Below, one piece after another: positions 7,793 to 64,000 of a stretch of 64,000 bases of DNA. Positions within the stretch are counted from its first letter, which is position 1. Each line of letters opens with the position of its first letter. Source of the stretch: Zootoca vivipara (lineage: Eukaryota); NCBI RefSeq assembly GCF_963506605.1, contig NC_083281.1:17174001-17238000 (forward strand), written 5' to 3'. The translations under genes were made by a program, and so were the position numbers. Below the pieces are notes generated by a model. The model made no database searches. It was not told where the DNA came from and saw only the letters and a list, made by a program, of their open reading frames with translations.

Positions 7793-12226
<4,434 letters not shown>

Positions 12227-13530: not shown

Positions 13531-13652
13531 CAGGAGAGCTCAGTTGGTTGAACACGAGTCTCTTTGATCTCAGGGTCTTGGGTTCGAGCCCCAGGTTGGG
13601 CAAGAGATTCCTGCGTGGCCGGGGGTTAGGCTAGATGACTTTGGGGTGTACC
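13531..13652 (+). mobile_element. tRNA-Lys-derived SINE with CR1-like 3' part
   Basis: agctcagttggt...tctcagggtcttgggttcgagccccaggttgggca, then agattcctgc..ggggttaggctagatgac. Confidence 0.75.
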
Positions 13653-13717
13653 TTATAATGACGACTCCATGGGCCTCTTGGCTGGCTTTCTGCGCTGTTC
13701 CTTTGAACCCTTGCAAA

Positions 13718-13860
13718 NNNNNNNNNNNNNNNNNNNNNNNNNNNNNNNNNNNNNNNNNNNNNNNNNNNNNNNNNNNNNNNNNNNNNNNNNNNNNNNNNNN
13801 NNNNNNNNNNNNNNNNNNNNNNNNNNNNNNNNNNNNNNNNNNNNNNNNNNNNNNNNNNNN
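13718..13860. other. Assembly gap (143 N)
   Basis: Run of N at the position where the duplicate copy has a long (CT)n. Confidence 1.
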
Positions 13861-27944: not shown

Positions 27945-28670
27945 AATAATGACGACTCCATGGCCCTCTTGGCTGGCTTTCTGCGCTGTTCCTTCGAAAC
28001 CTTGCAAAGCGGAGCTCCCCAGGCTCCCTTCTCTCTCTCTCAGGAGCCAGGCACCCAGAGGGGTCTTCTTTTGGGGACCCTCCTGGCTGCCCTGCACCCT
28101 CCCCTGCAGCCCTGGGACTCCCCCCATCTCCCCAACGAGAAATGAGACTCACCGGATCCCAGAAGGCGGAGCAGAGAGACAACAGCCCCCCTCCCCTTGC
28201 AGAAAGGGGGAGCCTCCTCCCTTTATTCCTGGTCCTCTCTAGAAATCCAGCTCAGTTCCTTTTAACCCTTGGCGAGCCGGGCGCACCCATCTCCCCCCTC
28301 TCTCCCTCTGCCAAGCAGGCTCCCCGGGCATGGCCTGCACCCATCGGGGTCTTATTTGGGGGGCCCTCTGGGCTGGCTTCTGAGCTGTTCCCTCTCTTGG
28401 ATACAGAAGCAGGAGGAGCACGAAAGGCCCGAATGGGGACAGGCTCTGCAAAGACATCCTCCGGGCACCAGCCTGGCTTTCATTTTGATGCCAACAGCAC
28501 CCTGAAAGAACTGAGACCTGAACTCTGAGGTCAAACACTGCCTTAAAATCGCACCAGCCTCTTCCACATTTGAAAATGGAAGCAATTACTTCCAGTTTTT
28601 CGGCATTCGAAAACTGAATCGTTCAGCTTCGAAGACGCTAAAAAACCGAGGTTCCGCTGTACAGTATATC

Positions 28671-30369: not shown

Positions 30370-32748
30370 AACTTTATTCGCCTAGTATCCTTTAGATGTC
30401 ACTATATAACCTTGCTTCTCCCGCCTTACAATCAGTGTTGGAAATGAGAATGGGAACTTTGTACCTGGGATGCAACATTTCATGGAAGCAATGCAATCAG
30501 ATGCTATTCTCTATTAAACACATTCCTGCCCTTAGCGCTCTTCCCTTCGTCTCCTTCCTTCCATCTTTGAAGACGCTAGTCAGGACAGATCCACTTCCTC
30601 CCATGGAGAAAGAACTTGGATTAGAGAAGCTCCCATCCCATCGCCAGCCCTCTTGTTATCCTAAGAAATTGATGGTCATGTCATTAAAGATCATCTTCAA
30701 TGGGATCTCTGTGGGTTGGAGAAATCAATTTGCCCGCAACCCTTACACCTTGGACTCCACACCAATGCAACTCCCCTCACCTTGCAAAATGACGGATCCA
30801 TGGCGTTTAGGACCCCCCACAATCCTAGGGGTGTAAGAAATCCAGACTTGCCTTGCATAGAGCTTCCTCCTCCTCCTCCTGTTGCTGCTTGTATAGGGAA
30901 CCCGGTTGCAACAGAATAAACGACCATTGCCTTTGCTTCGCTTCTCCTTGGTGGGAGTTCACCCATCCTTCCGACCACTGAGGAGCCTGATAGGGTTTCC
31001 CGAACCATCAGTGTATTTTTACAACCATTTCAACCCCTCACATCAATTGTTGCTTTGTAAATGTTTTTCTCTCTCACTCTGTGCGCACACACTTGTGCAA
31101 TGAGTAGAGTGTTTGCTTAACTGCTCAACTTCGAAAATGAAGAGGACAGCACTTGACTTAAGCTTCTCACAGACGAAAGATTGAAACTACTGCCTTTTAT
31201 GGCAAACATGCTCTGTGTGTGTTCAGAAGATACCAGGAAGAGCTTCAAGCAGACACTGCCACCATCCTGGTCATGCCAAGGCTGACTATGGCAAACAGGA
31301 ATAGAACAGAACAGAAATGTAGAGTAGAAAGGCACCCCCAACTACTGACAATGCAGGAATCTCAACTCAATGAGAGATGGGTCATCCAACATCTGATTAA
31401 AAACCTCCCAAGAAGAAGAGGACACCACCTTCTGACGGAGTCTGTTCTACTGTTGAAGAGTTCTTACTGTCAGAGAGATCTTCCTGAAGTTTAATCAGAA
31501 CCCCATTCCAGGATCTTTAGGCCACTGGTTCATATCCTAACCTCCAGAGCAGGAGAAAAAAGGAGCACCACCAATTTGCAGCTTTGAGGAGCTGAAAGAG
31601 GAAGCACCTTGAGCCTCCCTAATCATGCTGTGAAAACCCAGGCATCTTCAGATCAAGGGCGGTACCTGTATACAAATTGAATAGCAATAGAAATAATGAA
31701 GTATGTGAATTGCTCATGTGGTAAGAATTTGCTTCCACATCACCAGTTCGTGACCCAGGGGAGGGAACACCTGAAACAAAAACTCAGAACCAAGAGAATG
31801 AGAGCAATCTCAGCACCCTGCAGGGACCCGGTTTATGCAAACTTGTATTGCAATAGGAAAGCCTTGCTAACCTGTTGTTCTGCAGAACGGCTAGCTTGAA
31901 AAGGCTGCTAGGAGGCACGTTAGAAGAAACTTATATGCACAACACTGAAGACTCATAAAACATCAGAAAAAGGTCACAGGTCATGGGGCACGTGGTTCCA
32001 TGCGGGTATGGACTCCCCTGATATTACCTTGCAGTGTCCCAGAGTGCCCAGGCCATTTGGGTCTCTTATGTGTCACTTTGACACCATGCCCATGGCAACC
32101 AGGCCTTCCATGGGACTGTTGACATTCCAATCCCCTATCTTACTTCCCTGGTACCAAAACATGTCAAAGGGGTTTGAGGAGAGATGTGAGTTCACACCGT
32201 GGTGGTAGCTCAACACCTCCCTCTTTCCCAAAACATCACCTGCCCTTCTAGGGTCAGATAAGGCTGGAAGTGGTAGGCAATGTACACATCACAGCTTTAC
32301 ACAGTGCAGGAGGGTGGCATGAAGGTTACAAAATGCAGACCCATAAAAATCAAGCCTAATACATTTGATCTAAGAGGCTAAATGCAATTAATACTAGGAC
32401 ACTTTGAACAATATCAAAATCTATAATATTTAATATTCAATCAACTATCAAAATTTTTACTCCAAGTCCTTCCAAGGAAAGTTGAACATGGACGGCAACT
32501 TCATCAGTCTCGCCCAATTGCTCTTATCACTCTGTTCAGCCATGACGTGAAGAAGGTATTAAACACCTTGGCCAAGGACTTGCAAGTCACAGTTCCGGGT
32601 ACATAGTAGGAAGAGATATGGGGCACCAGATGTGGCAAAGAACCCAGCTACAATCCTCACCTCACACTGACTGAAGTCTCCTAAAATTAAATCTGTATAT
32701 AGTAACTTTTATAGTTCTCCCCCACTGTGAGTTCTTTGATCGGAAACA

Positions 32749-33221
32749 TCAGGGAGTTGTTCGGGCTACTCCCGAGTAAAGATGCTCCAGTCCACACTGT
32801 CTTAAAGAGTTTTATTGTGCATACTATTTACAGTGCAGAGATAGCAGAAAACATGGCCACCTAGTCACTTTCAGAGTCCGGCAATGGCTTTCGTCTGCTT
32901 CAGGGCCAGCATAAAAGCCTGGGCACCCCGAAACGCCGTCCCTTAGCCCTACGTGAGGGTGCGCACTTCAATTCGGGCGCCGGATGGAGAGGTCTCCCCT
33001 CTTGCTGGTTGGGGCAGCGCCTGGGCTCTGATGTCTCGCTAAGCCCCTCATCCGCTGTCCCTCGACCAGAGCGTTGCCAGGGCTCGGACGCCTCACTGAG
33101 CCCTCCCCCCATTCCGCTCCATTCCTCGTTCCCTCCTCCTGACTCGCTGCTCATGCTATTGCTGGGTGAAGTGCTAGTCAGGATGACGGGGGGAGGCTCC
33201 CTGTAGGGAGTACCCCTGACA
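32749..33221 (-). mobile_element. Solo LTR (duplicate of 7268-7740)
   Basis: Same sequence and flanks. Confidence 0.75.
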
Positions 33222-33273
33222 GGAAACAAGACAGGCCTTGTTGACAGAAGCTTTTTCCACATTCTAAGCAGTG

Positions 33274-37706
<4,433 letters not shown>

Positions 37707-39215
37707 CTTCTGGACATGCGTAGAAGCAACTTCCGATGCCGCTGTGCCCATTTCCAAAATGTCCGCAGCGCCAGAAGTCGCTTCTACGCATGTCTGGAAG
37801 TGCATAGAAGCAACTCCTGGTGCCGCGGCACTGCTGATCCCGGATTTTTCAATCCGGAACTTGGCACCTATGCTGTTACCTCTTCAGATTCAGATACCTC
37901 CTCCTCCCAGTCTTCTCCCTCTGACCACTCATCATTGCCCCCAAACCCCTCCCCTGGCCCAGAGCCGCCTTCCCTTGCAGGTTCCCCAACTGGTTCCCCT
38001 CACCATTCCGCTGTGCTAACCCAGTCAATGCAGCTCCCTCCTTGCATCCTTTATTCTGTTACCACCAGGTTGGGCTCTGCTTTTCTTTAGGGTGAAGACA
38101 GTCCAGCCTCCTGTTCTCACTGAGGCCAACCAGGGGCCTCTTCTAGGAAGCCCACCAGCAGGGCTGGAGCCCAAGAGCAACCCTCTCTCCCTGCACTTCC
38201 CAGCAGCTGGCATTCAGGAGCACGGCTGCCTCCAACTGTGTGGTAGAGGAGCCATCGCTAACCCTCTGCTCCTCCCTGAATTGGCTTCATCCTCTTCTAA
38301 AGCCATCTCGCTTGGTGGCCATCCCTTCCTCCTGTGGATGGGAGTTCCATGGGTCTAACTGCGTACTGCGACATAGGACTTTATTTATTTCTACCTCCAA
38401 AGGTGTCCATCTGGCTGCCACCTGGGCTAATTAACGTGACTGTTTCCTCAATCCCATCGGGATTCCTTTTCATACCCTTTTCTTCCTGACTCGGTGACCC
38501 CTCCTCCCCAAAGGGACAAGCGGCATCTTGATGCTAAGGAAAAAGAGAGTTGCAGACCTCCTGCTACTTGCAGCCTCCCTAGTTTTACAGAGAGGAAGCG
38601 GGGCAGAACCTCTTGTCCCTGGCTTGGGGATCCCCCTGCAGGAGCTGAGCAGGCTCCCCATGGACCCGCCCCCTGCAGCCCTGCGACACCCCCGCCCCAC
38701 TTCTCCCCAATGCACCCTAAGCCAGAAAAGAGAGGAAACTCACCAGGTCCCTGAAGGGAAACTGAGGCAGCTCCTGCAGAGGGGACGAAAGCCACCTTCC
38801 CCCTCTTGCAGGGAGGAACCCGGGAAAGTGGGCGGGGCTTTGGCTCGGGAGGACCTCGCTCCCTTCATTTTCTGTCCTCTCTAGGAATGCATCTCAGTTC
38901 CTTTTAACCCTTGCAAGCTGGAGCAAACCAAACTCACATTCTCTCTCTCTCTCTCTCTCTGAGGAGCCCAGGAGGATCCACGTGAATTGCAGAAATAAAC
39001 CCGAATAAGGCAGGAGAGCTCAGTTGGTTGAACACGAGTCTCTTTGATCTCAGGGTCTTGGGTTCGAGCCCCAGGTTGGGCAAGAGATTCCTGCGTGGCC
39101 GGGGGTTAGGCTAGATGACTTTGGGGTGTACCTTATAATGACGACTCCATGGGCCTCTTGGCTGGCTTTCTGCGCTGTTCCTTTGAACCCTTGCAAAGCG
39201 GCGCTCCCCAGGCTC

Positions 39216-41552: not shown

Positions 41553-46113
<4,561 letters not shown>

Positions 46114-47223
46114 CTCTGTTCTCAGGAAACCTCCAAGAAATCAAAAGAAGTCCCTACGTCTTCTGCCAAGTTCTGTCTGTCCTAATGAGAGGTTTTAGCA
46201 AATCCTAAAAAGCAAACACGCTTTTCTGATAAAAATTAATACACAATCAGGTGAATATAAATGTTCCCTGGGCAAGCATGGATGAGTCTTGCTAGGAACC
46301 AGGGCTGGACTGCACAACAACTCAGGCTGAGCTTTCTTTAAAAAAACGAAGGAAGGAAGAAGAAGGAGGAAGTCAGAATGGATGAGTGAGTCATTTGTAC
46401 ATTTCATTCCTGTTTCTGCCTCATGTTCCAGCACTTGGATTCTCCCACATTCTCAAGACTCCTGGGGTGGGTCCCTTTTTCTTTATTCTGAGGGCCAGAT
46501 CTTTACCTGGCCAAAGAACAGGTGGGTGGGACCAAAGGACAGTGTTTAAAAAAGAGAGATATAGGATTTGCCTTCTTTCTGTGGTTAATGCTTAACAAAA
46601 GTAAGAGGAGAGGTCCAAGCAGGTGCCCTGTAGATGTCAACAACTAGGAAATCACTATTGAAAATAACAGATGCTGCCAGTCCCCTGAAGAATGAGTGGT
46701 GAGTCCCCTTGAAAATAGAGGGTGAAGACACCTCCTCCCCCTTAGATGGATCTGAGAAAAATACAAACAGGGACTTTGTCGGGGGAATTCTGCTCTTCTG
46801 CCTAAGTAAAAAAAATGTATGGCAAGCCTTACAACTAGGGATCTATGTTCCTTTAAAAAAATAATATTTTTATTGACAATTTTTGAGATACAATAAGAAT
46901 CAAACAAGAATTTAAAAAAGAAAAAGAAAAGGAGGGGGGAAATGGGGGGCCCTGACTGCATGATGGGCTAGGACAGAAACAGGAAAGCACCAGTTCTTGG
47001 GTTCCATTAAAAACTGAATTACCTGTGGCTGTGAACAAAAGCCTGGCCCATGACAACCAGTACATTTGGCTAGCGATTGTCCTGAATGTTTTAACATCAG
47101 CTGAACATATGTGAAAGAAACTTCAATTAAAGATATCTTCTACACTTTCCAAAGAGGCCATCTGGCAAAGCGAGTAATGAAGAAGATTGCTTATCCATTT
47201 AAAGCATACACTTTTATGTAATA

Positions 47224-48041
47224 CTAGTTGGCCCTGCCACGCGTTGCGGTGGCTCAGTTTGTTAAAGGGAGCCTCAGAGTCCCACTTCAGACTCCCCTCA
47301 CCTTCAGAGTCCCCGTTTTTCATGTGTTATGTTTACATAGGCGCATCCCTGTGTCTCCACCCACCCTGTTCTGTCACTCCTCCCCCCATCCCCCGGTTCA
47401 CCCCTGTGATTGGGCCCACCCTGTGACCTATTCGGCCCCCCTTCCCCCACCCACGCAGGCCCCTACCTCCACTTGGTCTAGTATGGTAAGTGGCCTAGTC
47501 TGCAAAGCCGAGGCGAGATACTGTGGAGAGGGCATGTTTCATCCCTGTGTCTCCCCCCACCCTGTTCTGACCCATTTCCTATTCCTGCCCCATATTCGCC
47601 CCCCACCCCCACCCCCAGGCAGGCCCCTACCTGCACTTGGCCTAGTCTGGAAAGCGGCCTAGTCTGCTGCGGCCTATTCAATCTGCTGGGCAATGTTGGC
47701 CTTGTTGCTGCCAAAGGCCTGTTTTCAGTTGGTTGCTGTGGAATTTTGTGATGTCATCTGGTGGTGCGGCTTTGGAGGTAGCAGCGTGCGACCTGTCTTT
47801 CTATTGGATGCTGCTGGAGTCTCCAGACCTTCTGCTGGTGATGTCTAATTTGGGCGCCCCTTTTTGTGTTTAATCATTATTTTACGTGCGAAAGGTGTTT
47901 TTGTTTTTTTTAACTTTACGCCAGATTCCTCCCTGATGGGGAAGGTACAATTTGTCCTAATCTGATGCAATTTGGTTCAGCGGTTACGGAGCAAGGCTGT
48001 GACCTCCGCACACACAGTGGGAACATTGATATATATATAGA
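47224..48041 (-). mobile_element. Non-autonomous Helitron, same family as 43459-44287
   Basis: 5' TC, 3' GCCAC..GTGGC hairpin and CTAG|T. Confidence 0.88.
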
Positions 48042-48228
48042 TAACCCACCCATCTGGCTGGGTTTCATGTTTTGAAAAGGCAGAACTGGAGGAAGAATAT
48101 TCACAGGGAAAACAGTAAACAATCTTCCATCCAAGGCTTGCTGTGGGAGTGTTAGCTTCCCAGGTGCTGCTGTTGAGCCCCATCGAAATATCAGAGCTTC
48201 TTCCCATAGAGAGATGTCTTGAATTTCA

Positions 48229-48384
<156 letters not shown>

Positions 48385-49259
48385 CTAAAAGAAAAAGAAA
48401 AAGGTTGTCCTCTCAGACAACATCAAGGTGAACTGTTACACTTTGCTCTGTTGTCTTCTGCCTCTTACTTGATGTTATGTTTTAATGGGATTCTTCTTCT
48501 GCACATTTCATGATGGACACATTCCCATTTGCCACATGGGAGGAATCCCTTTCTTCTTTCCCTGTGTGCTGTTCTTGCCGGGTGGGGAGGACCCTCCTGA
48601 TGCCCTATAGACAACTTCAAGGGTCGCAGGGGGGCAATGACAGGGGGATGAGAGGGGGAAAGCTCCATTGTGCGACTGATGGGGTGAATCCTGGCCAGTC
48701 TTTGGTATGGTGTATACCAATATATATCGACTACCTGGAGATGCGGGTGATTGAAGCTAGGACCTTTGGCATGCAAAGTAGATGCTGAAACAGTTCCAGC
48801 TTTTCCCATGCCTGCTGCAGTTGCTGTTTGAGCAGGTAATTTGGGACGGCAGCAGCAAGATGGATTGTTCGATCAGTTGAAGGTCAGACTGAGAACATGG
48901 CACTAAAAATATACCTTCAATGGTCACATGAGGCTGTTTTTAAGTTTTGTGCACCATTTTTAGTGCTACCTGGAACCTGGTGGAAATTTTTCAAGCTTTA
49001 GTTTCTTCGCAACTGGAGACTAACCATCAACTGCAATTTCCCTAAAACCAAATTCCAGAGTGCACTAGGACTGGCTGAACACGAAAGTCTACTTGCAGTT
49101 GCTTAGCATGTTGGACAAAGAGACCTGGGTTTGTTTCAGCGTGCAAACTGGGTGATCTTGGGCTAACCAAATGCCTAGTCACGGGACCCTTGTACAGATA
49201 ACCTGGGAAAACTGTATCACTTTAAGCTCTTTAGAGGAAGAGCAGGTTGAAAAGTGGTT

Positions 49260-49474
49260 AAAGGGTAAAGGTAAAAGGACCCCTGACCATTAAGTCCAGT
49301 CAGGGACAACTCTGGGGTTGCAGCGCTCATCTCGCTTTACTGGCCGAGGGAGCTGGCGTTTGTCTGCAGACAGCTTCTGGGTCATGTGGCCAGCATGACT
49401 AAGCTGCTTCTGGCGAACCAGAGCAGCGCACGGAAACACTGTTTGCCTTCCCGCCAGAGCAGTTCCTATTTATC
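49260..49474 (-). mobile_element. Sauria SINE 3' half
   Basis: Reverse complement of about 40160-40360 (ggtaaaggtaaa tail). Confidence 0.85.
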
Positions 49475-49712
49475 TCCGCAGGACCTTACATATGAGTATG
49501 ACCCCTGTTCTGCAGAGTACACGCAAGTACTAGTTATAAAACTGAAGAAGCATTAACCGAAACAGATGATTACCCTGGATCACAGTCTGGTTTATGGTTA
49601 ACTACAGATTAAAACAGTTATATTTTGCCCAAGAACTGGTCGACGTGTTGCCTCCTTTTCTCAGCATTTTGATTTTAAACTTGTGAGCCTGAGGGAAGCA
49701 ATCATATTAGTT

Positions 49713-49848
49713 CAGGCATCCCCAAACTTCCGCCCTCCAGATGTTTTGGACTACAATTCCCATCTTCCCCGACCACTGGTCCTGTTAACTAGGGATCATG
49801 GGAGTTGTAGGCCAAAACATCTGGAGGGCCGCAGTTTGGGGATGCCTG
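49713..49848. mobile_element. hAT MITE (family of 3996-4131); flanks show no TSD
   Basis: Near-identical to 3996-4131. Confidence 0.88.
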
Positions 49849-50500
49849 CTCTATGTCAATACCAACTGCAGATCACGTCCTAATGCATGAATAAAAAAAC
49901 TTACAGAATAAAATGTTTTATTGGTGTTCAACAAGCCATCTCTTTTGTCCCCATTCAAGTATTTCCCTCAACCACCTTTGCTCAGAGCACACAAGCAGTG
50001 TCTCAGATATCTCAGTGAAGGACATGCATCTGATGTGCAGATCTGAGACAGCTACCACCACGTATGCTCAGGAGTTTGCTAACACAGCTGTTGCAGATTT
50101 AGCTGTGGCTAGTGGCTCGACACAGGTCTTGGAATCCAGTCTTGAAAGGGGTACAGGGTTTGTCCTCAAAGGACGGAAAACCACGTCCAAAGGATGTAAG
50201 GGTAGACACTGTTTCCTTGGAGAACCACGTCCAAAGGCCATGTGTGCCAACACTGTTTCCTCAGAGAGGAATGAGGCTAGGGGTCGAGTCCCAACGAAGC
50301 CAGGTGTGAAACTGATAGTCAGGAGAGCTATGACGCCAAGACTAGTCGGTAGTGCAAGATGGTAAAGCCCAAGGCTAATCCAGTTGCAGGTAGTTCCAAG
50401 GGTGGAACGGGTGATACAGGGGTATACTGTGGGTATGACACCTGTATGGTTGTTGCAGTTACACTGATGACTACAACACAGTACATGAATCGGGGGAGGA

Positions 50501-50865
50501 TGTTAGAATTCCTGCTCCGTGTTTGCAGGTCATGAGATTGTCTATCATATGATGGTGTATGTTTTCATTTCACAGTGTGGGAAGTGACGGAGACAGGATG
50601 TTTTGTTCTTTCTCTTTGCTGTCTGATGAGAAAGAGGAAGGAGCTAAGTCAGAATGCTCCGAGTGTATTATATGTAAATACAGATTAGCCAAAATGCCGT
50701 GCTAATGAGTTCTGTTACGCAAACGGCAAATACTCTGCAGGTATCAGTCACTGTGATGTTGAAAAAAGCTCTTGAAGCTCCCCAACGATCAACCAGGAGG
50801 GAGAGAACATGCCAGTCGGGGCATGTGTCTCTACCAGGGTCCTACACGAGAGGACGATCCTAACA
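50501..50865. mobile_element. Solo LTR-like element
   Basis: TGTTAGAAT...ATCCTAACA termini; flanks gagga/cacgg do not match. Confidence 0.6.
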
Positions 50866-51750
50866 CACGGTCGGCAACCAGGGATGATGGGAATTGTAGT
50901 CTTGAAGGCATACTGAAGGTGGAGACCAAAGGTAGCCATTTCTCCAGGATTGTTCTGTTGATCTGTAGGACTTTGTTCTCGTCTGACCTACACTTAAATA
51001 GCTGACGCTTTCACAAGACCACATTCTCAGCATCTCCTCCAGCTTTCCCCACCCCAGGTTATTCTTCTTCCATTTACAACGGCCTAATAAATAAAAACAA
51101 AAACATACAACAGGCTGTTTTTGGTTCTCAGCTTCCTGAAGATTAAATCAACACTTTTTTTTTATATATAAAAAAGGTTTTTTTTGTATTGTACAGACCT
51201 TGTAAGTCACTTTGAGACTTTGTGGAGAAAGTAATGGAAAAATAATTGAGGGAGGGAAAACAATAAAAAGCAGGACCTCAATCATTCCAGTGGTAAAAAT
51301 AAATAAATGAGACCCCTATGAAAAGACTTCAAACTAGTCACTGCACAAACATTGAAATTATGAGAATATGCAAGTACCAACTTGAACAAGCCCAAGTGTG
51401 CTGTTTATAACACTTGCATAAGTAAGGATGAAAACGTAATATTAACAGTAAGACTCAGAATACCTGTGGCTCCCATAGGTTCTTCCAACCAGGAACCATA
51501 CGCTTAGGCTTATTAACACAATTATGACATAAAACTCTGGTGCGTATGCCTCTTACAAAGCCATTAAGTGCCTCAATTTTTCACACCCCCTCATGCCATA
51601 GTATCAGAAAACTCAAAAAAGAGCAAGGCAAAAATTGAAAAAAAAGAGCCCTGCCAATCCAGCATCCTGTTCTCCAAGTGGCCAGCCAGACCCTCCAATA
51701 GGAAGCCTACAAGATATAATAAGGGTTTATGAACGAAGCAGCAAACAAGC

Positions 51751-51882
51751 ACATGCCTCCTGCATGGTTTATCTCCTCAGTCACTGCCCGAAGACTCAGA
51801 GTAGCAGTAGGAATATGCCGGTTGCAGACCATCGGCGTGGAAGAGGACTATACACGCAACCTCAACAGATATCCCCGTTGGG
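51751..51882 (-). ncRNA. SNORA73: U17/E1 (SNORA73, snR30 family) snoRNA-like sequence, shortened and lacking H and ACA boxes
   Basis: Minus strand CCAACGGGGATA...AGTCCTCTTCCAC...GC-ATATTCCTA (m1, 51808-51816)...GAGTC...TGACTGAGGAGAT-AAACCAT (m2, 51764-51770)-GCAGGA, colinear with vertebrate U17 as recalled. Confidence 0.8.
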
Positions 51883-52102
51883 TTGACAGCAGCATGAACG
51901 GCAAGTGCATTTGTAGAAAGCTGCCTAATCTCTAGGCCAGCATGACCAATGGCCTGGAATTATGGGCACTGTAGTCCAACATGGCTGATGCCCTTTCAGA
52001 ACTGCTTATACCCAGACAGCATTTTATATTTCAATGAACTTTTAGTCTAAACTTAAGAGTACAGCATTATTTTCACAGTGGAGTTTATAAAGACAACAGT
52101 AG

Positions 52103-52192
52103 CATAGCTGCCAAGTTATCCCTTTTTTTAAGGGATTTTCCCTTATGCTGAATAGGCTTCCTCGCGAGAAAAGGGAAAACTTGGCAGCTATG
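52103..52192. mobile_element. 90-bp hAT (Blackjack-type) MITE
   Basis: 15-bp TIR catagctgccaagtt; TSD aacagtag/aacagtgg. Confidence 0.85.
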
Positions 52193-52842
52193 AACAGTGG
52201 TCTTAATGACACACACATACACCCCGGCCCGCAAAAGGCAAATAGGAAAAAGTAATTATTCTCATGAATACCTTGAGATTCAAAACTGCTGTACATACCC
52301 ATTTCAGGATTATATGGCCATTCCAACAGCATGCAATGGACTTTCAAGCATACTACAATGGGAAGAACAAAATTGTACAATAGTTAAGACAATGTATTCC
52401 TGGGCTGGTCACACATTGAGTGTGTGTCTGTGTCATTTCTTCCCTCTCCCCCCCCCCCCAATTTCTAGGGAGTTTAAAGAAAATTCATGATTGGCCCACA
52501 GCACTTTTGTCGTCGATCCTCTTGGAACGACTTGGTTACTGACCCCCGCCTATTAAATTCTATTTATATAAGCAATATATATACAGGCACGATATTCTAA
52601 ATTTGAACGCAAGAGCTTTTATTTTATTTTGCAGCGAGAGGAGGTAGCATTAGAAAGCTTAGCTGCTTGTGCCGCCAGAGTTTTTTGCTGCTGTTATTGT
52701 GGGGGGGGGGGAGATGTTGATTTCTATGAATTGCATGTCTTTTTAGAATAACATTTTTTTACTTAAGCTCTTTAAGATATTGCTAGGCGGCCTGGAAACC
52801 TGTGTGTAACAGGCTACTTATAAGTTCAATAACTAATAATAG

Positions 52843-53037
52843 AAGGGGCTCAGCTCAGTGGTAGATTATCTGTTTTGCACGCAGAAGGTTCCAGGTTCAA
52901 GCCTCAGCATCTCCAGGTAGGGCTGGTAATGTCCACTGCCTGAATCCATGGGGAGCCACTGCCAGTCTGTGTAGACAACACTGAGCTCGATGGACCAACG
53001 GTCTTAACTCAGTATAAGGCAGCTTCCCCTGTTCCTA
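52843..53037 (+). mobile_element. Squam3-like tRNA-derived SINE
   Basis: agctcagtggtaga...ccaggttcaagcc head; gccagtctgtgtagacaacactgagc...tataaggcagcttcc tail. Confidence 0.8.
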
Positions 53038-53083
53038 AGTAAATTATGTTTATAAGTGGAGACAATTGATGTGCTCCTTAACA

Positions 53084-55606
53084 TAAGATTACCAGATTTT
53101 TTTTCAATGAATCCGGGGGCACTTTTCAACTTCAGCCGGAATGATAGCTTGATAGGAAGTTTGCCTTTATTACTAAGGTAATACATTAAAACAACCACAT
53201 TAATGAAATTGAAGAGTTACCTTTGTTCTTAACTAGTTGTATTGTTCCGAAGAGTGCACCTTGCTGAGAAGATCTCGTCTTGACTCCAGTTTTGTTGCAA
53301 ATTCTTGGCAATCCATGGCAAAGTTACTCTGGACCACTAACATAGCTTTGATAGTGTCAATATCAAGTCTTGATCTCTGAGATGTCCACATCATGTTCAT
53401 GGAAGAAAACACTCTCTCCACTGCAGCATTGCTTCCTGGTAGACAGAGACAGAGTTGAACCAACCTTTGCAGCTGTGGAAAGGGCATCATCTTCTGACAG
53501 AAGAATGAGAAAATGTCGCTCCATCTTGAACACACATCAGCCCCATCTTCATTCCATTTAGTTATCTTTTCTTTTGATACATATTCTTTCAAAGAAGAAA
53601 TTTCATCAAATAAATGATCTTCACTTAGATCAACTCCTTCGACTCTTGATGAAAAATATTGGAGACACTCTTCAAAGTTTTCTCTCTGTGGAGAAGTCCT
53701 AAGCAAAATACACTCCATACACCTAATATCTTCCGAGTGGGAGCTCCAAGCATTTAGGTATTCAATAGCAGTAGTGTAGAAGTCTCTTGATATGGTGAGA
53801 AATTCTTCCTGCGTGCAGGAACCTTCTTCTTCAAGAGATGGCAAAAGTTTCCTCACTGAGAGGGGAATAAACTTGTCATCATTCCTAGCCTGAAGTTTCT
53901 GAATCAAACTGTTGAGAATCATGCAAGATTCCACTGCTGTTACTGCCTCTCCTTCGGCTTGGAGTATAGAATCACGGAAAAGTGGCAGAGTTGAGGCAAC
54001 AAAATTCATCCATAAATAGGTGCAAGGATCACTGAACCACTTTTTCAGCATGGCTGGACATTTCTCCTCAGACAGAAAGAAGGATTTCAAGGCAGCATAT
54101 ATTTCACAGATCCTTCTGATGGCTGGTAGCAGCGAAAGCCATCTGACATTACTATAGCTAAGAATATTCTTGTATTCCTGTCCTACAAACTCGCAAAACT
54201 CTTTTAGAGGTTCTACTCTCACTGCAAATATGTGAAAATAACCAAAAATCTTTACTACAAGCCCTTCAACATCAACAGGGATTGAATTTATTGCAGAATG
54301 CGCACTGTTATGTATCATATGAGCATTACATCCCAAGCCGAGGATATTCTTTCCCAAACCTTCCTTCATTTTGGTGAGGACATCGTTTGATCCTTTCCTC
54401 TTCAGACCACCAAAGTTAGTGTTTGTATTGTCTGCTGAAACCGCTACCACTTTACGCTCCAAACCAAGATCCTTGATTGTTTGAAATGAAGCTGTGTATA
54501 TTATTTCAGCTGTTTCCCCTGCAATTTGAACAAAGTCCACAACTTTATTACGGATGGATACAGCTTTCTCAGCATTCACATGTACGTAGCGAACAATAAT
54601 TGGTAGTAATTTTGTATTACAATGATTTGAAGCATCTAGAAGTATAGTTACAAAAGAAGCACGACTGCTTTCTTCTACAGCTTCAGCAATCGCCCAGGGA
54701 GCAATCACGTGTTTGACAATGGCTTCAACTTTTGTTCTGGAACACATGAATTTCTTAATCAAGCTGGAAGGGCAGTCCATAGACTTGAAACTGTGGTTAT
54801 GCCTCACGGTATGAAATGCGAAAGTTCCTTCTTGAAGGGCAATGTTTATTTCACTTTGATACGGCACAATTGTCTTCAAGTATGCTGATACCTTCTTTGT
54901 GTTTCTACTTTCCCGAATCAAGGAGCTTTTGTGTCTTTTAGTTGCAACATGTTCAACGACTGAGGTCCGCCCGCCACTTCCAACAGTAAAAGTTACTTCA
55001 CATAGTGAACAAAATGCAGAATGTTCCTTCACGCCTCTTCTGATAAATGGAAAATCCTTTAGTATCAAATCAGTAACCACACATTTTCGTTTCTTCGACG
55101 TCTTATTAGCTTCAATAACTACAATATAAATTACAAAAAGTACACGTGGATGTTAAAAGACTGCCGATACTGCTAAAAACGAACACTCAACACTGGAAAA
55201 AGCAACAGAATGAAAGAGGAAGAGGAAAACGGAAGTGAGATGTGAAAACATGTGCGAGTTGGCAGAGAGCCAATCACATTTCGAGAGAAAACCATGTGAT
55301 AGCAGCTAGCCAATCACACTTTGATATACATATTGATATGTCTTGTGCTGTTGAAGCAATCACACAACATTCATTCCGTACTAATTCCAAAGAGAAGGAA
55401 ACTCAAGAATGAGTTGTTTCCTTCCAAAGAGAATGCCATGTAGGAGTAATTTACAGTTACTGTATCTTATAAATCTAGAACACTCAAAATATAAATTCGG
55501 GGACATTAAATTAAACCCAGGGACATTCCAGGGACGGATTTTGTCAGGGGACTGATTTGTAAATCTGGGGGCTGTCCCTGGGAAACGGGGACGTCTGGTA
55601 ACCTTA
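53084..55606 (-). mobile_element. Full-length hAT (Blackjack-type) DNA transposon
   Basis: TIRs taagattaccaga (53084) / tctggtaacctta (55606); TSD ccttaaca/ccataaca; subterminal GGGAC repeats; internal transposase. Confidence 0.92.
53233..55101 (-). CDS. hAT transposase (BED finger, DDE, C-terminal dimerisation domain); probable start codon is ACG
   Basis: CSLC..H..H, LLDAS, SADNTNTN, CNAH, RWLS, SNAAVERVFS. The frame upstream of the listed ORF reads (ACG)SKKRKCV. Confidence 0.9.
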   Translation of the reverse strand, partial: TSKKRKCVVTDLILKDFPFIRRGVKEHSAFCSLCEVTFTVGSGGRTSVVEHVATKRHKSSLIRESRNTKKVSAYLKTIVPYQSEINIALQEGTFAFHTVRHNHSFKSMDCPSSLIKKFMCSRTKVEAIVKHVIAPWAIAEAVEESSRASFVTILLDASNHCNTKLLPIIVRYVHVNAEKAVSIRNKVVDFVQIAGETAEIIYTASFQTIKDLGLERKVVAVSADNTNTNFGGLKRKGSNDVLTKMKEGLGKNILGLGCNAHMIHNSAHSAINSIPVDVEGLVVKIFGYFHIFAVRVEPLKEFCEFVGQEYKNILSYSNVRWLSLLPAIRRICEIYAALKSFFLSEEKCPAMLKKWFSDPCTYLWMNFVASTLPLFRDSILQAEGEAVTAVESCMILNSLIQKLQARNDDKFIPLSVRKLLPSLEEEGSCTQEEFLTISRDFYTTAIEYLNAWSSHSEDIRCMECILLRTSPQRENFEECLQYFSSRVEGVDLSEDHLFDEISSLKEYVSKEKITKWNEDGADVCSRWSDIFSFFCQKMMPFPQLQRLVQLCLCLPGSNAAVERVFSSMNMMWTSQRSRLDIDTIKAMLVVQSNFAMDCQEFATKLESRRDLLSKVHSSEQYN

Positions 55607-55684
55607 CCATAACAGAGAAAGGTTTCAATAGACTAAAGAAAAACCTTCTCCCTTGGACATAACTGGAAAGGAGGCTGTGTAAAC

Positions 55685-55818
55685 CAGGGGTCAGCAAACT
55701 TTTTCAGCAGGGGGGCGGTCCACTGTGCCTCAAACCTTGTGGGGGGCCGGACCAGTGGTTGGGGAAGATGGGAATTGTAGTCCAAAACATCTGGAGGGCC
55801 GAAGTTTGGGGATGCCTG
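55685..55818. mobile_element. hAT MITE with dissimilar ends
   Basis: Left caggggtcagcaaact, right agtttggggatgcctg; flanks gtgtaaac/ttctaaac. Confidence 0.7.
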
Positions 55819-55887
55819 TTCTAAACACACACACACACGCTCAAAGAATTATGGGCACTGTAGTTCACCCCTCATACCGTAGCTACC

Positions 55888-58800
55888 CCCCTTCATGGAT
55901 CAATGCCTTGTCGTGGCGAAGGGGCTTGAATAACTCAGAGAAGCTATGAGCTATGCCATGCAGGGCCACCCAAGATGGACAGGTCATAGTGGAGAGTTTT
56001 GACTAAACGTGATCCACCTGGAGAAGGAACTGGCAAGCCACTCCAGTATCCCTGCCAAGAAAACTCCATGGACAAAGACAACAGGCATATAAAAGTTATG
56101 ACGCTGGAAGATGAGCCCCTCAGGTCAGAAGGCGTCCAACATGCTACTGAGGAAGAGCGGAGGACAAGTACAAGTAGATTCAGAGCTGATGAAGCGGCTG
56201 GGCCAAAGCCGAAAGGATGCTCAGTTGCGGATATGCCTGGAAGCGAAAGGAAAGTCCGATGCTGTAAAGAAAAATATTGCATAGGAACCTGGAATGTAAG
56301 AACCATGAATGGAGGTAAGCTGGATGTGGTCAAAAATGAGATGACAAGAATAAATATTGACATCCTGGGCATCAGTGAACTAAAATGGAAGGGAATGGGC
56401 GAATTCAGTTCGGGTGACTATCATATCTACTACTATGGGCAAGAATTCTGTAGTAGAAATGGAGTGGCCCTCATAGTCAACAAAAGAGTGGCAAAAGCTG
56501 TAATGGGATGCAATCTCAAAAATGACAGAATGATCTCGATACGAATCCAAGGCAGACCTTTTAACATCACGGTAATCCAAGTTTATGCACCAACTACCGG
56601 TGCTGAAGAAAGTGAAATTGACCAATTCTATGAAGACCTACAACACCTTCTAGAAATGACACCAAAGAAGGATGTTCTTCTCATTACAGGGGATTGGAAT
56701 GCTAAAGTAGGAAAACAAGAGATAAAAGGAACAACTGGCAAGTTTGGCCTTGGAGTTCAAAATGAAGCAGGGCAAAGGCTAATAGAGTTCTGTCAAGAGA
56801 ACAAGCTGGTCATCACAAACACTCTCTTCCAACAACACAAGAGACGACTCTACACATGGATATCACCAAATGGGCAGCATCGAAATCAGATTGATTATAT
56901 TCTCTGCAGCCAAAGATGGAGAAGCTCTATACAGTCAGCAAAAACAAGACCTGGAGCTGACTGTAACTCAGATCATCAGCTTCTTATAGCAAAATTCCAG
57001 CTTAAACTGAAGAAAGTAGGAAAAACCACTGGGCCAGTAAGATACAATCTGAATCAAATCCCTTATGAATACACAGTGGAAGTGAGGAACAGGTTTAAGG
57101 ATTTAGATTTGGTGGACAGAGTGCCTGAAGAACTATGGATGGAGGCTCGTAACATTATACAGGAGGCAGCAACGAAAACCATCCCAAGGAAAAGGAAATG
57201 CAAGAAAGCAAAATGGCTGTCCAACGAGGCCTTACAAATAGCGGAGGAGAGGAGGCAAGCAAAATGCAAGGGAGATAGAGAAAGATACAGGAAACTGAAT
57301 GCAGATTTCCAAAAAACAGCAAGGAGAGACAAGAGGGTCTTCTTAAATGAGCAATGCAAAGAAATAGAGGAAAACAATAGAATGGGGAAAACCAGAGATC
57401 TGTTCAAGAAAATTGGAGATATGAAAGGAACATTTCGTACAAAGATTACCATAATCAAGGACAAAAGTGGTAAGGACCTAACAGAAGCAGAAGACATCAA
57501 GAAGAGGTGGCAGGAATACACAGAGGAATTATACCAGAAAGATATGGAGGTCTCGTACACCCCAGGTAGTGTGGTTGCTGACCTTGAGCCAGACATCTTG
57601 GAGAGTGAAGTCAAATGGGCCTTAGAAAGCACTGCTAATAACAAGGCCAGTGGAAGTGATGATATTCCAGCTGAACTATTTAAAATTTTAAAAGATGATG
57701 CTGTTAAGGTGCTACACCCAATATGCCAGCAAGTTTGGAAAACTCAGCAATGGCCAGAGGATTGGAGAAGATCAGTCTACATTCCAATTCCAAAGAATGG
57801 CAGTGCCAAAGAATGCTCCAACTACCGCACAATTGCGCTCATTTCACACGCTAGCAAGGTTATGCTTAAAATTCTACAAGGCAGGCTTAGGCAGTATGTG
57901 GACCGAGAACTCCCAGAAGTTCATCTGTCTCCTGAGAAATCTCTATGTGGGACAAGAAGCTACAGTTAGAACTGGATATGGAACAACTGATTGGTTCAAA
58001 ATTGGGAAAGGAGTACGACAAGGTTGCATATTGTCTCCCTGCTTATTTAACTTATATGCAGAATTCATCATGCGAAAGGCTGGACTAGATGAATCCCAAG
58101 CCGGAATTAAGATTGCCGGAAGAAATATCAACAACCTCAGATATGCAGATGACACAACCTTGATGGCAGAAAGCGAGGAGGAATTAAAGAACCTTTTAAT
58201 GAGGGTGAAAGAGGAGAGCGCAAAATATGGTCTGAAGCTCAACATCAAAAAAACCAAGATCATGGCCACTGGTCCCATCACCTCCTGGCAAATAGAAGGG
58301 GAAGAAATGGAGGCAGTGAGAGATTTTACTTTCTTGGGCTCCTTGATCACTGCAGATGGTGACAGCAGTCACGAAATTAAAAGACGCCTGCTTCTTGGGA
58401 GAAAAGCAATGACAAACCTAGACAGCATCTTAAAAAGCAGAGACATCACCTTGCCGACAAAGGTCCGTATAGTTAAAGCTATGGTTTTCCCAGTAGTGAT
58501 GTATGGAAGTGAGAGCTGGACCATAAAGAAGGCTGATCGCCGAAGAATTGATGCTTTTGAATTATGGTGCTGGAGGAGACTCTTGAGAGTCCCATGGACT
58601 GCAAGAAGATCAAACCTATCCATTCTTAAGGAAATCAGCCCTGAGTGCTCCCTGGAAGGACAGATCGTGAAGCTGAGGCTCCAATACTTTGGCCACCTCA
58701 TGAGAAGAGAAGAATCCTTGGAAAAGACCCTGATGTTGGGAAAGATTGAGGGCACTAGGAGAAGGGGACGACAGAGGATGAGATGGTTGGACAGTGTTCT

Positions 58801-58927
58801 CGAAGCTACGAACATGAGTTTGACCAAACTGCGGGAGGCAGTGCAAGACAGGAGTGCCTGGCGTGCTATGGTCCATGGGGTCACGAAGAGTCGGACACGA
58901 CTAAACGACTAAACAACAACAACAACA
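55888..58927 (+). mobile_element. RTE-BovB LINE, full span, with an internal RT deletion and frameshift near 57921
   Basis: APE (GTWNVRT, GDWNA, DYIL, SDH) and RT (GVRQGCILSP, YADD); (CAA)n tail; 12-bp TSD accgtagctacc. Confidence 0.96.
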
Positions 58928-59042
58928 ACCGTAGCTACCAGTAACCACTAAACTACAGTGCTACAGGAAAGCATGTGCTTCAAATGTGCTTTACATAACT
59001 TAAAAACACATTTGAAGCATGAAACATATGCTTTCCTGAGGG

Positions 59043-59358
59043 CCCCAGTCCTGCCACTCAGCACCTGGCCCAGGGCGGGGCCTGATGGGCTCTCTTTTGT
59101 TTTGTTTTTGGTTTAAATTGCTGCTATTTTTTACCTATGTCATTTTAATCCGTGATATTAATGCTGTATTCTTAGTTTTAGATTTTGATTTATATGGAAA
59201 TTGTTTTCCATTTGGTTGTGAATTTTTTTATGTGGTTTTTTTATTGTTTATGACTTTTGCAATTATGTAAATCTTGTCATGTTGTAAGCAGCCTTGAGCA
59301 TTGTTTTTAACTGTGGAAAGGCGGCATACAAATAAAAAATGATGATGATGATGATGAT
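59043..59358 (+). mobile_element. Probable L2-type 3' UTR fragment with (GAT)n tail
   Basis: T-rich body, tgtaagcagccttgag..gcggcatacaaataaa and a microsatellite tail. Confidence 0.55.
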
Positions 59359-59458
59359 GTAGCACTGTAGTTTAGCTGTCACTGGTAACTACAGTCCAAG
59401 AATAACATCTGCAGATATTCCATTTGTATAAATTTATGCTGTTCCTATCTTTGAAAGT

Positions 59459-59673
59459 TAGGGTTGCCAGACTCAATAGTGGACAGGACTTCTGTGCCTT
59501 TAATTGCCCTGCTCTCTTTTGAGTCTGGAAACCTTAAAGAGAAACCAGCAGACCCTTTGCTTGGAAATTAAACAAAGGGTCTGCTGGTTTCTCTTTAAGG
59601 TTTCCAGACTCAAAAGAAAGCAGGGCAATTAAAGGCACAGAAGTCCTGTCCACTATTGAGTCTGGCAACCCTA
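59459..59673. mobile_element. Fold-back hAT-Blackjack MITE (near-perfect palindrome)
   Basis: tagggttgcca termini; about 100-bp inverted arms around a 13-nt loop; perfect TSD ttgaaagt. Confidence 0.93.
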
Positions 59674-60108
59674 TTGAAAGTGTTCCCAACCAGGTTCCCA
59701 ATCACTCTTGGCTATTGGCCATGCTGACTGGGGCCAATAAAAGCTGTAGTTCTAAACATCTGGAGTGCACCTGGTTGATGGAGGCTAGTCCAGGTAGTAC
59801 TCTTAAGATCAAACAGAAAAAAAATTCTCCAGTACCTTGCATTTCCAAATTAGACATGTTCACCTGTGGATCAAATGTACTCCTCAGCAGCACCCGATGA
59901 GGTTCTCAAGGCTTTCTGACCACAAAACAAAAGTGCACTTTAGTGTATTACAACTGCATGAAATACAGCTTTGTACAAGTACCATTGGCACCAAGCAATG
60001 TACAGCCTAGCATCCAAGAATACACTGCATAAACATTTTTGACCAAACTTGTCTTTGTTTATAAATGCTTGGTTTCAGGAAAGCTATAAAGCCTCACAAA
60101 GATTAGAG

Positions 60109-60243
60109 CAGGCACCCCCAACCTTCAGCCCTCCAGATGTTTTAGACTACAATTCCCACCATCCCTAACCACTGGTCCTGTTAGCTAGGGATCATGGGAA
60201 TTGTAGGCCAAAACATCTGGAGGGCGCAGGTTGGGGATGCCTG
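60109..60243. mobile_element. hAT MITE (family of 3996-4131)
   Basis: TIRs present; perfect TSD gattagag. Confidence 0.9.
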
Positions 60244-60771
60244 GATTAGAGCAACTGCTGTTAGGAAAATCTGTAGTTTTGCAGTTTAAAAATTGATGCT
60301 TCAGAACCTCATATAGTTTTTAAATACAATCTTGCTTGAAATGATCAAAGTTGAAAGGTTTCTCCCCACCCATCAGCACCGCGATATGCACATGTGTACA
60401 CTGTTAAGAGGTCACTAGCAATCAAACCTAGGATCGTGCTAGTGCGGATGAAATGAGAAGAGGAGAGAACCACGTACACCACCCTGAGCTCTTTTAAGGA
60501 AAGGAGAGAAACTAATTAAACAATAAAGCTTTTTAGAGGGGTAAGAAAGATCCAATTTGCCTCGCGAGTTTAACAGAACTTCACAAAGAAGACATCCATG
60601 CAAACGGGTACGAATGAGGCTACTCATAGCTTTTTTCCCGAGCGCAGACAAGCCAAGAGGAATCCCAGATGGAAACCAGTGAAGTGCACTGCAAGCAGAG
60701 GAAGGGTTGCTGTAGCGCACCATTCTTCCCAGGCCTCAAAAACAAATTGCCACCCATGCCGGCTGCTGTAC

Positions 60772-61260
60772 CTGTTGAACTTCTGGCTGACGGGAAAGAG
60801 CAAGCCGCCCGACTGCACGGCGCATGCGGCAAAGGTGTCCCGTCCAAGAGGAAAGCCCACGAGTTTCCTCCGTCTGGGCGGCCCTCACTTCCTGCTCTCA
60901 GTCGGCTTTTTCAGCGTGCGGGCCAATGTGGGAATAGTATTTTATTTTATTTTTAAATCGAACAACAACAAAAAAATGGTCCTCGGCGCATAGTGATTAT
61001 TTGAAAGCACTGCACTTCTGCCTGCTGATTTCTCTCTCCCCTACCTCTTAAACCTTACTCCACTATAGCTATTTCTACCAGTTTTTCCCCGCACATGGCG
61101 GAGAACATCGATGGCGAATGGGAACCGAACTTTTTACAGATTTATGAAGACTGGACCTTTTAGGGTATTTTAATATTGTCTATTGGCGACACAGAGCATG
61201 CGTAATAGCGATGGGTTGGGGGAAGGAGGGAGACAGGATGCAGAGGAGCAGTGATTGGTT
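60772..61260 (-). promoter_or_regulatory. CpG-rich housekeeping promoter region with a TCT/TOP start
   Basis: CTCTTTCCC (60800-60792), NRF1-like GCGCATGCG (60820-60828), ETS CAGGAAGTG (60894-60886). Further upstream: CCAAT boxes, CATAAA, YY1-like GCCAT and a GTAAGG donor near 61058. Confidence 0.65.
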
Positions 61261-61374
61261 GAACTCCAAGGTGGCGCCGAGTTTAAAGAGAAGGAAAGTC
61301 CTGCTCTTGGCTGCCTAAAAAGTTCAGGGTGGGGACACCCAGCAAGTAGTTTGGGGCATCTTATTCCTCTGCAC

Positions 61375-61377
<3 letters not shown>

Positions 61378-61438
<61 letters not shown>

Positions 61439-62560
61439 TTATTTATACCCCGCCCATCTGGCTGGGTTTCCCCAGCTTCCAACTGAATATTAAAACAGTA
61501 CAGCATTAAACATTAAAAACTTCCCTAAACAGGGCCGCCTTCAGTTGTCTTCTAAAAGGAAAATAGTTACTTATTGCCTTGACATCTGCTGGGAGGGCAT
61601 TCCACAGGACGGGTGCCACTACCGAGAAGGCCCTCTGTCTGGTTCCCTGTAACCTCACTTCTCGCAATGAGGGAACCGCCAGAAGGCCCTCGGTGCTGGA
61701 TCTCAGTGTCCGGGCTGAATGGTGGGGGTGGAGACGCTCCTTCAGGTATACAGGACCGAGGCCATTTAGGGCTTTAAAGGTCAGTACCAACACTTTGAAT
61801 TGTGCTCGGAAACGTACTGGGAGCCAGTGATGATCTCTCAGGACCGGTGTTATGTGGTCCCGGCGGCCACTCCCAGTCACTAGTCTAGCTGCCGCATTCT
61901 GGATTAATTGCAGTTTCCGGGTCACCTTCAAAGGTAGCCCCACGTAGAGCGCATTGCAGTAGTCCAGACGGGAGATAACTAGAGCATGCACCACTCTGCG
62001 GGCAGGTAGGGTCTCAGCCTGCGTACCAGATGGAGCTGGTAGACAGCCGCCCTGGACACAGAATTAACCTGTGGCTCCATGGACAGCTGTGAGTCCAAAA
62101 TGACTCCTAGGCTGCGCACCTGGTCCTTCAGGGGCACAGTTACCCTATTCAAGACCAGGGAGTCCTCCACACCTGCCTGCCTCCTGTCCCCCACAAACAG
62201 TACTTCTGTCTTGTCAGGATTCAACCTCAATCTGTTAGCCGCCATCCATCCTCCAACCGCCTCCAGGCACTCACACAGGACCTTCACCGCCTTCACTGGT
62301 TCTGATTTAAAAGAGAGGTAGAGCTGGGTATCATCCGCATACTGATGAACACCCAGCCCAAACCCCCTGATGATCTCTCCCAGCAGCTGCATGTAGATGT
62401 TGAATAGTATGGGGGAGAGGACAGACCCTGAGGCACCCCACAAGTGAGAGCCCAGGGGTCTGAACACTCACCCCCCCCTTCCACCATTTTCTGAACATGG
62501 CCCAGGAGGAAGGAGTGGAACCACTGTATAACAGTGCCCCCAGCTCCCAGCCCCTCTAGA
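61378..62560 (-). mobile_element. L2 LINE, 5'-truncated, with (ATT)n tail
   Basis: [40 protein letters not shown]. Confidence 0.92.
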
Positions 62561-63286
62561 GTTGCAGAAGAAGCAAACAAAGTCTAATCGAGCTAATGTA
62601 GTGTAGGGGTTCAAGGGCTGAAAACAGAGGGTAGAAATGGATGTTAAACTGCTCAAGCCACTAACAGGTTGCAGTATTTTGAAGTGGGTGGATTATAGTT
62701 AGGAAAAGCATCTCCTGTCACTAAACCCTCCAGTCAGTATCTTAGGAGTTTTTAAGGCAGGATTTGGCTCACCAGTGACTTTCCAGATGTTGTTGAACTC
62801 CCATCATAGCCACTGATCAGGGGTGATGAGATTTTGACAGGGACTGTGCTGAGGAGGGCTGCTCTGAGCAGGAATGGTGGGAGCCTCCCCCTCCCCCTCC
62901 CCCTGCTCCTGATCAGGATCATGAATCTTCCTAGGAACAGGAGGACAGTCTAGATTTGGAACAGTGGTTTGCAGAGGGACATAGTTTGGAAGACAGAAGC
63001 TGGGAAGAACTGGGTGGTGAACAGCTAGGGGAAGAAGAACTGGGGGAGAGTTAACAGACTCAATATTGCTGGAAAGCATCCATCCAATCAGCCCAAGGTA
63101 AAGGAGAGCAGATAAGGTGGCAGCACAGGAAGCACAGCAGTGGTTGCCAGATCAGGTTGCAAGACTCGGAAGTGACGTGGGTGACTAGAGGGGACGTGGG
63201 TGGAACCCTTAATTGGGAGCACCTTCATTCCGAGGAATGGATTCTTTGTTCTCTCCCTGTGATCATTAAAAACTATAAATGGTAAG

Positions 63287-63493
63287 AAACAAAATAAAAG
63301 AATTCCTTCCAGTAGCACCTTAGAGAACAACTAAGTTTGTTATTGGTATGAGTTTTCGTGTGCATGCACACTTATTCAGATGCACATGAAAGCTCATACC
63401 AAATAACAAACTTAGTTGGTCTCTAAGGTGCTACTGGAAGGAATTCTTTTATTTTGTTTCGACTACAGCAGACCAACACTTCTACCTGCCTGT
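63287..63493. mobile_element. Penelope-like pLTR fragment in inverted arrangement
   Basis: Long inverted repeat of the cataccaa..cttagttggtctctaaggtgc unit; TSD aactataaatgg(t/c)aag. Confidence 0.8.
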
Positions 63494-64000
63494 AACTATA
63501 AATGGCAAGCGACTCATTTCACTTTGTTCTGCTTATATATACTGCCAAAGAGGGGGAGGGAGCTGAGTCCATGGAGCCTGACAGATTTGTAGTCCAAAAG
63601 CATCTGTGGGGCTACAGGTTCCCCATCCCTGCCATAGAGTATCATAGTCAATGACAGCTCAAAATGAGTACAGGCTGTGTAGGAATAAATATTTCCCTCT
63701 CTCTTATCTATGAAGATAATCTCTCCCAAGCAGTGTAAGTAATAATGAGAGCCCTGAGCAACATGGGTAGTTTTCACATGAGCTTTTGATGTAGCTCACT
63801 ACGCTACCCAGTTTTAAAATTAACTCTGTGGCTTGTCCAAGCCCTCTGTCGTCCTTATAACATCTGCAACTGTCTACTATATTGTAGACCAAACCAAGTG
63901 GGGAATTAAAACTCACCTGATTTCATTTCTGCCTTTCAGTGGATGGATCTTGTCATGTCCACCTGATTCAGCCATCTCTCACTCTCCATCCATGGATGAT

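Follow-up and report, generated by a model that had tools for sequence, protein, structure and literature searches.

The minus-strand sequence at positions 51751-51881 of the window (the whole 64-kb stretch of DNA that was analysed) is a remnant of a SNORA73/U17 small nucleolar RNA gene, 131 nt long where intact copies have 208-209 nt. It is most likely, and we hold this with high confidence, a non-functional pseudogene: a U17 copy that sits inside a DNA duplicate of the SNHG3 locus, has suffered two deletions, and carries a mutated ACA box. The proper annotation of 51751-51881 is SNORA73 pseudogene, because the sequence descends from SNORA73 but its score falls short, box H and ACA are gone, and the hairpin expected of the family is not predicted to form. 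A pseudogene of this kind matters little in itself. The caution that it offers is that short motifs left intact in a young duplicate do not point to selection.

Features and divergence of the U17 remnant

In an E-value scan of window positions 48000-58000, Rfam model RF00045 (SNORA73) matches the remnant with 59.2 bits (E 1.6e-12) across model positions 1-219. This is below the gathering score of the model, 74 bits, and compares with 156-198 bits for the six intact U17 copies of the genome. The remaining eight Rfam matches in 48000-58000 (mir-5408, SNORD53, tRNA, SCARNA7 and others) are all sub-cut-off, and at gathering level the entire 64-kb window contains no Rfam match. An earlier note, made from the letters of the sequence, had described a U17 of about 130 nt on the minus strand with perfect m1 and m2 motifs and had called for a SNORA73 search; that description is borne out, with the Rfam match found, yet under the gathering score. 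Both m1 (51816-51808) and m2 (51770-51764) have the same letters as in the four copies at the SNHG3 locus. The pair m1...m2 occurs a single time in the window when both strands are considered, so the match is not due to chance.

Two deletions separate the remnant from its parents. One, of 22-23 nt with its junction at 51829-51833, where copies 1 and 3 have TGG on both sides, has removed box H, and no ANANNA element is found between the two hairpin regions of the remnant. The other, of 55 nt relative to the parents or 54 nt relative to copy 4, has its junction at 51855-51856 in the 5' domain. By alignment to the parent copies, the ACA box is now GCA (51754-51756), where a box H/ACA snoRNA would have ACA three bases from its 3' end; no second ACA occurs within the remnant or ahead of the acceptor. 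The earlier reader had seen the loss of the H-box segment (here at about 51833-51829) and the change from ACA to GCA correctly, and had also placed the 3' end of the RNA (51751) correctly at 44 nt upstream of the exon start at 51706. The shortened 5' stem proposed in the same place (CCAACG/CGATGG) survives in its letters, but it is a mere leftover of the second deletion, includes an A-A mismatch, and has a predicted pairing of 0, a weak test given that the prediction for intact copies is 0-0.16.

Eight substitutions, at 51865, 51864, 51844, 51819, 51802, 51787, 51785 and 51756, set the remnant apart from all four parents. Two further differences adjoin the deletion junctions, giving 10 in all, so that 8-10 of 128 sites (6.3-7.8%) differ; the parent U17 copies show 2-10 differences per approximately 207 sites among themselves. 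Across seven flanking segments, the duplicate differs from the parent at 379 of 3634 aligned sites (10.4%), which is 5.2% per lineage on the assumption of equal rates in both copies. At the flank rate, the probability of at least 8 changes in the remnant is 0.35, and of at least 10 changes 0.13, so the remnant has no deficit of changes. The probability that the 16 motif bases stay untouched is 0.27-0.43. Judged by these alignments, the divergence of the remnant is at or above the 5.2% flank rate and shows no constraint, for a sample of 128 sites in which selection on 16 bases could escape notice. With divergence at about the neutral rate, retention of m1 and m2 by chance is to be expected.

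The 3' domain has five changes, none compensatory. One hits ACA, and two break stem pairs: the change at 51802 in the upper stem, and a T>G substitution at 51819 that turns a U-A pair of the basal stem of the 3' hairpin into G-A, non-standard in the Rfam alignment. When the 3' domain is folded in isolation, the predicted probability of the basal stem is 0.98-1.0 for copies 1 and 4 and 0 for the remnant. Full-length folding gives the same stem 0.37 in copy 1 and 0.94-0.99 in copy 4; the program is thus imperfect, and its predictions leave proteins out. In the remnant, the prediction pairs part of m1 with the 3' tail. According to these predictions, the hairpin that displays m1 and m2 would collapse in the remnant. 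Compared with functional members of RF00045, then, the remnant has both m1 and m2 but neither the score nor, by prediction, an internal loop closed by a basal stem. A different local hairpin is predicted at its 5' end, with probability 0.98-0.99. This new hairpin of 7 bp arises from the two adjacent substitutions at 51865-51864, which, from their arrangement in the sequence, are possibly a single template-switch event.

The parent SNHG3 locus and its duplicate

At least seven matches to RF00045 are present in the genome, from 29 candidates scored: four on contig C6, two on contig C3, and the remnant. The four on C6 are intact U17 genes at C6:33,630,619-33,634,217, with scores of 192-198 bits. 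Exons with RCC1 repeats follow 13 kb downstream on that strand, and RCC1 itself heads the PDB matches of one of them (E 1e-29). An arrangement of U17HG/SNHG3 upstream of RCC1 is described in PMC7601244. Because the four U17 genes of C6 lie just upstream of RCC1 on the same strand, as in U17HG/SNHG3, the cluster is identified as SNHG3. This parent locus carries four U17 copies, and its spacers after copies 1 and 3 form an internal repeat that is 4.3% diverged (28/652 sites); for human SNHG3, PMC7601244 gives two U17 copies. The two copies on C3 score 156-160 bits and precede RPS7-domain exons by 1.3 and 2.7 kb. They are near-identical 225-nt genes, 54 kb apart in C3:24,615,668-24,674,337, with RPS7-domain exons after each. 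The C3 locus is apparently a tandemly duplicated RPS7 gene with intronic U17, well diverged from the SNHG3 type.

The minus strand of the window from 48731 to 64000, continuing to about 66900 in window-equivalent positions, aligns as a colinear duplicate of C6:33,626,397-33,636,831, interrupted by later insertions. About 10.4 kb of the SNHG3 locus is represented, introns included, 16 Mb from the parent on the same contig, where it borders a SCAN-KRAB-zinc-finger cluster. Order and orientation agree throughout, from the promoter and the intronic sequence to the acceptor at 51706 and the last exon. The segment 50866-51750 (minus strand), which contains the intron end, the acceptor (exon start 51706) and the putative last exon, shows 9.0% substitutions relative to C6:33,629,766-33,630,618, downstream of copy 4; at the acceptor itself the parent is identical. 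The earlier note held that SNHG3 is not visible here, which is wrong, as the flanks of the remnant are a diverged SNHG3 copy from which the acceptor at 51706 is inherited. The 3' exon and the promoter each have two copies in the assembly, one in the window and one in the parent, and a search of the genome found no SNHG3 duplicate besides these two loci. The presence of introns, promoter and colinear homology identifies a DNA duplicate rather than a retrocopy. Homology runs through introns and flanks, and the disabling changes come without a sign of constraint (in a small sample), the pattern of a snoRNA pseudogene made by DNA duplication.

The stretch that holds U17 copies 1 and 2 in the parent is missing from the duplicate, which is left with the one remnant. 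The 5' flank of the remnant is closest to that of copy 3, while the 3' flank is that of copy 4, and a fusion of parent copies 3 and 4 was considered on this basis. Against the fusion, the internal repeat of the parent is 4.3% diverged versus 10.4% for the duplicate. As far as sequence comparison can tell, the remnant may be either a fusion of copies 3 and 4 or an older single last copy; the younger parental repeat favors the older copy, although gene conversion could mislead.

Later gains of the duplicate are a LINE, a hAT element and an LTR-like insertion. The LINE (55888-58922) has endonuclease and reverse-transcriptase frames and shows 98% identity to copies near the parent locus, and so belongs to a young family. 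The hAT element includes an open transposase frame of 639 codons (53233-55152, minus strand; Pfam Dimer_Tnp_hAT), over which one RNA-seq run, X15, has low minus-strand depth that may stem from other copies. The insertion in the last exon (49997-50868, about 870 nt) stands in place of about 80 nt of parental sequence, and its ends read as LTR-like. A further Rfam match, to mir-5408 at 49739-49822, scores 42 bits, sub-cut-off, on both strands. It was rejected as a microRNA gene, the sequence being an inverted-repeat element of about 145 nt with many local copies.

Three raw RNA-seq runs labelled as the same species, about 6% of each run, plus one contig set, were aligned to 45400-61300 at 96% likeness. 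The runs are long-insert RNA-seq, in which an RNA of 130 nt would be missed, and say nothing on such an RNA. Depth in the raw runs is 0-0.17 at 60268-61300, the region of the duplicated promoter, and 0-0.29 at 51241-51771; in the bin 51772-52302, which covers most of the remnant, a repeat at 52103-52192 dominates the depth. Among the 40 of 264 differences listed, X15 reads on the last exon have the parent base in 20/20 cases at 50973, 13/13 at 50981, and 11/11 at 50992. At 50942, the base in 41/41 X15 reads matches neither reference copy; two reads of run X14 have the window base. A joint at 49996-50869, with at most 35 letters on its short side, fits the 80-nt spacer of the parent, and contig set X1 has a low-depth piece at 49973-50605. 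The alignments suggest no or very little expression of the duplicate in the sampled RNA.

Competing readings of the locus

The duplicated SNHG3 promoter (60785-61295, minus strand) retains its CpGs: 20 of 27 aligned parental CpGs are kept there, and the other six segments together keep 8 of 24 (Fisher p=0.005). Such retention is what would be expected had the promoter stayed unmethylated in the germline. A pyrimidine tract at 60800-60791 is inferred to be a 5'TOP start, and a deletion of about 395 nt then removes the putative exon-1 donor of the parent. A SCAN-KRAB-C2H2 zinc-finger gene (41553-46113, minus strand) follows the promoter on its strand at a distance of 14.7 kb; it has five coding exons, GT-AG ends, and an intact open frame of 639 amino acids with 12 fingers. 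A filler of about 14 nt separates the SNHG3 duplicate from an extra KRAB-A exon (48258-48384, minus strand), part of a 1.5-kb duplicate of 43447-44964.

This layout raises the possibility, which we regard as rather unlikely, that the SNHG3 promoter starts transcripts that splice into the downstream zinc-finger gene, with the remnant in an intron. Beyond the CpGs kept in the promoter (20/27 against 8/24), the frame of the gene that begins at 46113 is intact, with pN/pS of 0.53-0.69 against four paralogues, values that rest on small counts of 6.5-24 synonymous changes. Its SCAN exon is also the sole one of five to lack the upstream segment of the cluster: a shared segment of 1.3 kb precedes the other four, and no homologue of it is found before the SCAN exon of this gene. 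The RNA data and the exon structure argue the other way. Depth near the promoter is the 0-0.17 given above. On the SCAN exon, reads of run X15 show the bases of paralogues (9/9 at two sites), and reads on the KRAB exon do so in 15 of 16 cases over the three runs. Among the 15 of 74 joints listed, none leads from the duplicate to the zinc-finger exons, and the duplicate has lost the putative exon-1 donor. Upstream segments that belong to the cluster itself are not CpG islands, so a different promoter, such as the LTR-like insertion or 46515-47211, could go unnoticed.

Capture of the promoter is a reading that concerns the host, and it is compatible with a dead remnant. Given the duplicated promoter with its retained CpGs, the intron that holds the remnant may be transcribed in some tissue. 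If capture did occur, which we doubt, the promoter taken would be an unmethylated one of 5'TOP type, from a host gene without its U17 cargo, and the zinc-finger gene would be one without a 5' end of its own. A growth-regulated housekeeping promoter would then control a KRAB transcription factor whose intron holds the U17 remnant as a fossil, and the recruitment of a snoRNA host gene promoter by a zinc-finger gene would be traceable, a result of more consequence than the pseudogene. A weak search, by title and start of abstract, found no paper on this locus or on such promoter capture.

For the remnant itself, the earlier note had offered two readings, a decaying paralog or a non-canonical intronic RNA that has kept its ability to pair with 18S and does not need dyskerin. 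The first stands, with neutral-rate divergence, loss of the boxes, a broken basal stem, and a parent with four intact copies in addition to the two near RPS7. Intact U17 copies would have made the duplicated one redundant, leaving it to decay at about the neutral rate. According to PMC5207380, exonucleases trim intronic H/ACA RNAs, and bound RNP proteins protect these RNAs and set their ends. With both boxes and the basal stem gone, dyskerin, Nop10 and Nhp2 would not be expected to assemble on the remnant, and if the intron were transcribed, the exonucleases that trim snoRNAs would probably degrade the remnant RNA. The 5' deletion alone might be tolerable; the loss of H, ACA and basal stem together would leave nothing to protect or position the RNA. 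The m1 and m2 motifs presumably survive since 16 bases often escape a divergence of 5-8%.

The second reading, a minimal box-less and dyskerin-independent RNA that pairs with 18S ES6 through m1 and m2 as a decoy or chaperone, is highly improbable and finds no support in the data. It has the perfect m1 and m2 to its credit, and since the 5' hairpin of yeast snR30 is described as dispensable (PMC7601244, PMC2664660), the 55-nt deletion would not by itself have to abolish function. H/ACA RNAs with very short 5' hairpins, such as AluACA7, can accumulate as well, though both of their boxes are kept (PMC5207380). The remnant, however, has lost both H and ACA, its basal stem is disrupted, and part of m1 is paired in the prediction. 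Published work links both the accumulation and the function of such RNAs to their boxes (PMC5207380, PMC7601244, PMC2664660): ACA is reported as required for U17 RNP assembly in vitro (PMC7601244), and 18S processing as needing m1 and m2 unpaired in an internal loop at the right spacing to ACA (PMC2664660). Survival of the motifs is expected by chance with a probability of 27-43%, six intact U17 genes exist, and no other protective end structure is evident in the remnant.

Least probable of all, and very unlikely, is that the remnant came about by retroposition of U17 or is an artefact of the assembly. An 11-kb duplication at 99.9% identity does occur elsewhere in the window and human U17 retrogenes do exist (PMC1802619), but the duplicate is 10% diverged, carries its own insertions and comprises introns and promoter; no poly(A) tail or A tract follows past 51751, and 53-72% of the words of 45400-53100 are found in five runs of genome-like size (four samples from two studies, one maybe the assembly source). 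The 11.25-kb repeat (2464-13717 and 27945-39197) lies within the zinc-finger cluster, and its SCAN exon has a stop codon in both copies; the first copy ends at an N run, 13718-13860. It is either a recent duplication or assembly redundancy.

Comparison with known U17 genes and copies

The pseudogene shares with SNORA73/U17 (RF00045; snR30 in yeast) common descent, m1, m2, most of the sequence of the 3' hairpin, and placement within the final intron of a host of the SNHG3 type. It differs in being 77 nt shorter, in having neither box H nor ACA, in the mismatch of its basal stem, and in its sub-cut-off score. The surrounding stretch is likewise colinear with U17HG/SNHG3 upstream of RCC1, including promoter, pyrimidine start tract and last exon; a title cited in PMC7601244 places U17HG/SNHG3 in the 5'TOP family. 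Unlike that locus, the duplicate adjoins a zinc-finger cluster without RCC1, has one remnant in place of four U17 genes, has lost about 395 nt of exon 1 and intron 1, and has received LINE, hAT and LTR-like insertions.

AluACA RNAs are a precedent for a much reduced 5' half of an H/ACA RNA (PMC5207380). As described there, H and ACA are retained in these RNAs and their accumulation depends on a BIO motif, whereas the remnant has neither box.

The human copies U17c-f, with 86-90% identity, resemble the remnant in being diverged extra copies of U17 (PMC1802619). They and other H/ACA-derived copies are described in that source as retrogenes with target-site duplications, most of them with poly(A). 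A snoRNA retrogene has poly(A) and no host introns; here the parental intron, acceptor and promoter are present, and the remnant arose through DNA duplication with introns and promoter. That origin by DNA duplication is its only difference from the known human U17 retrogenes.
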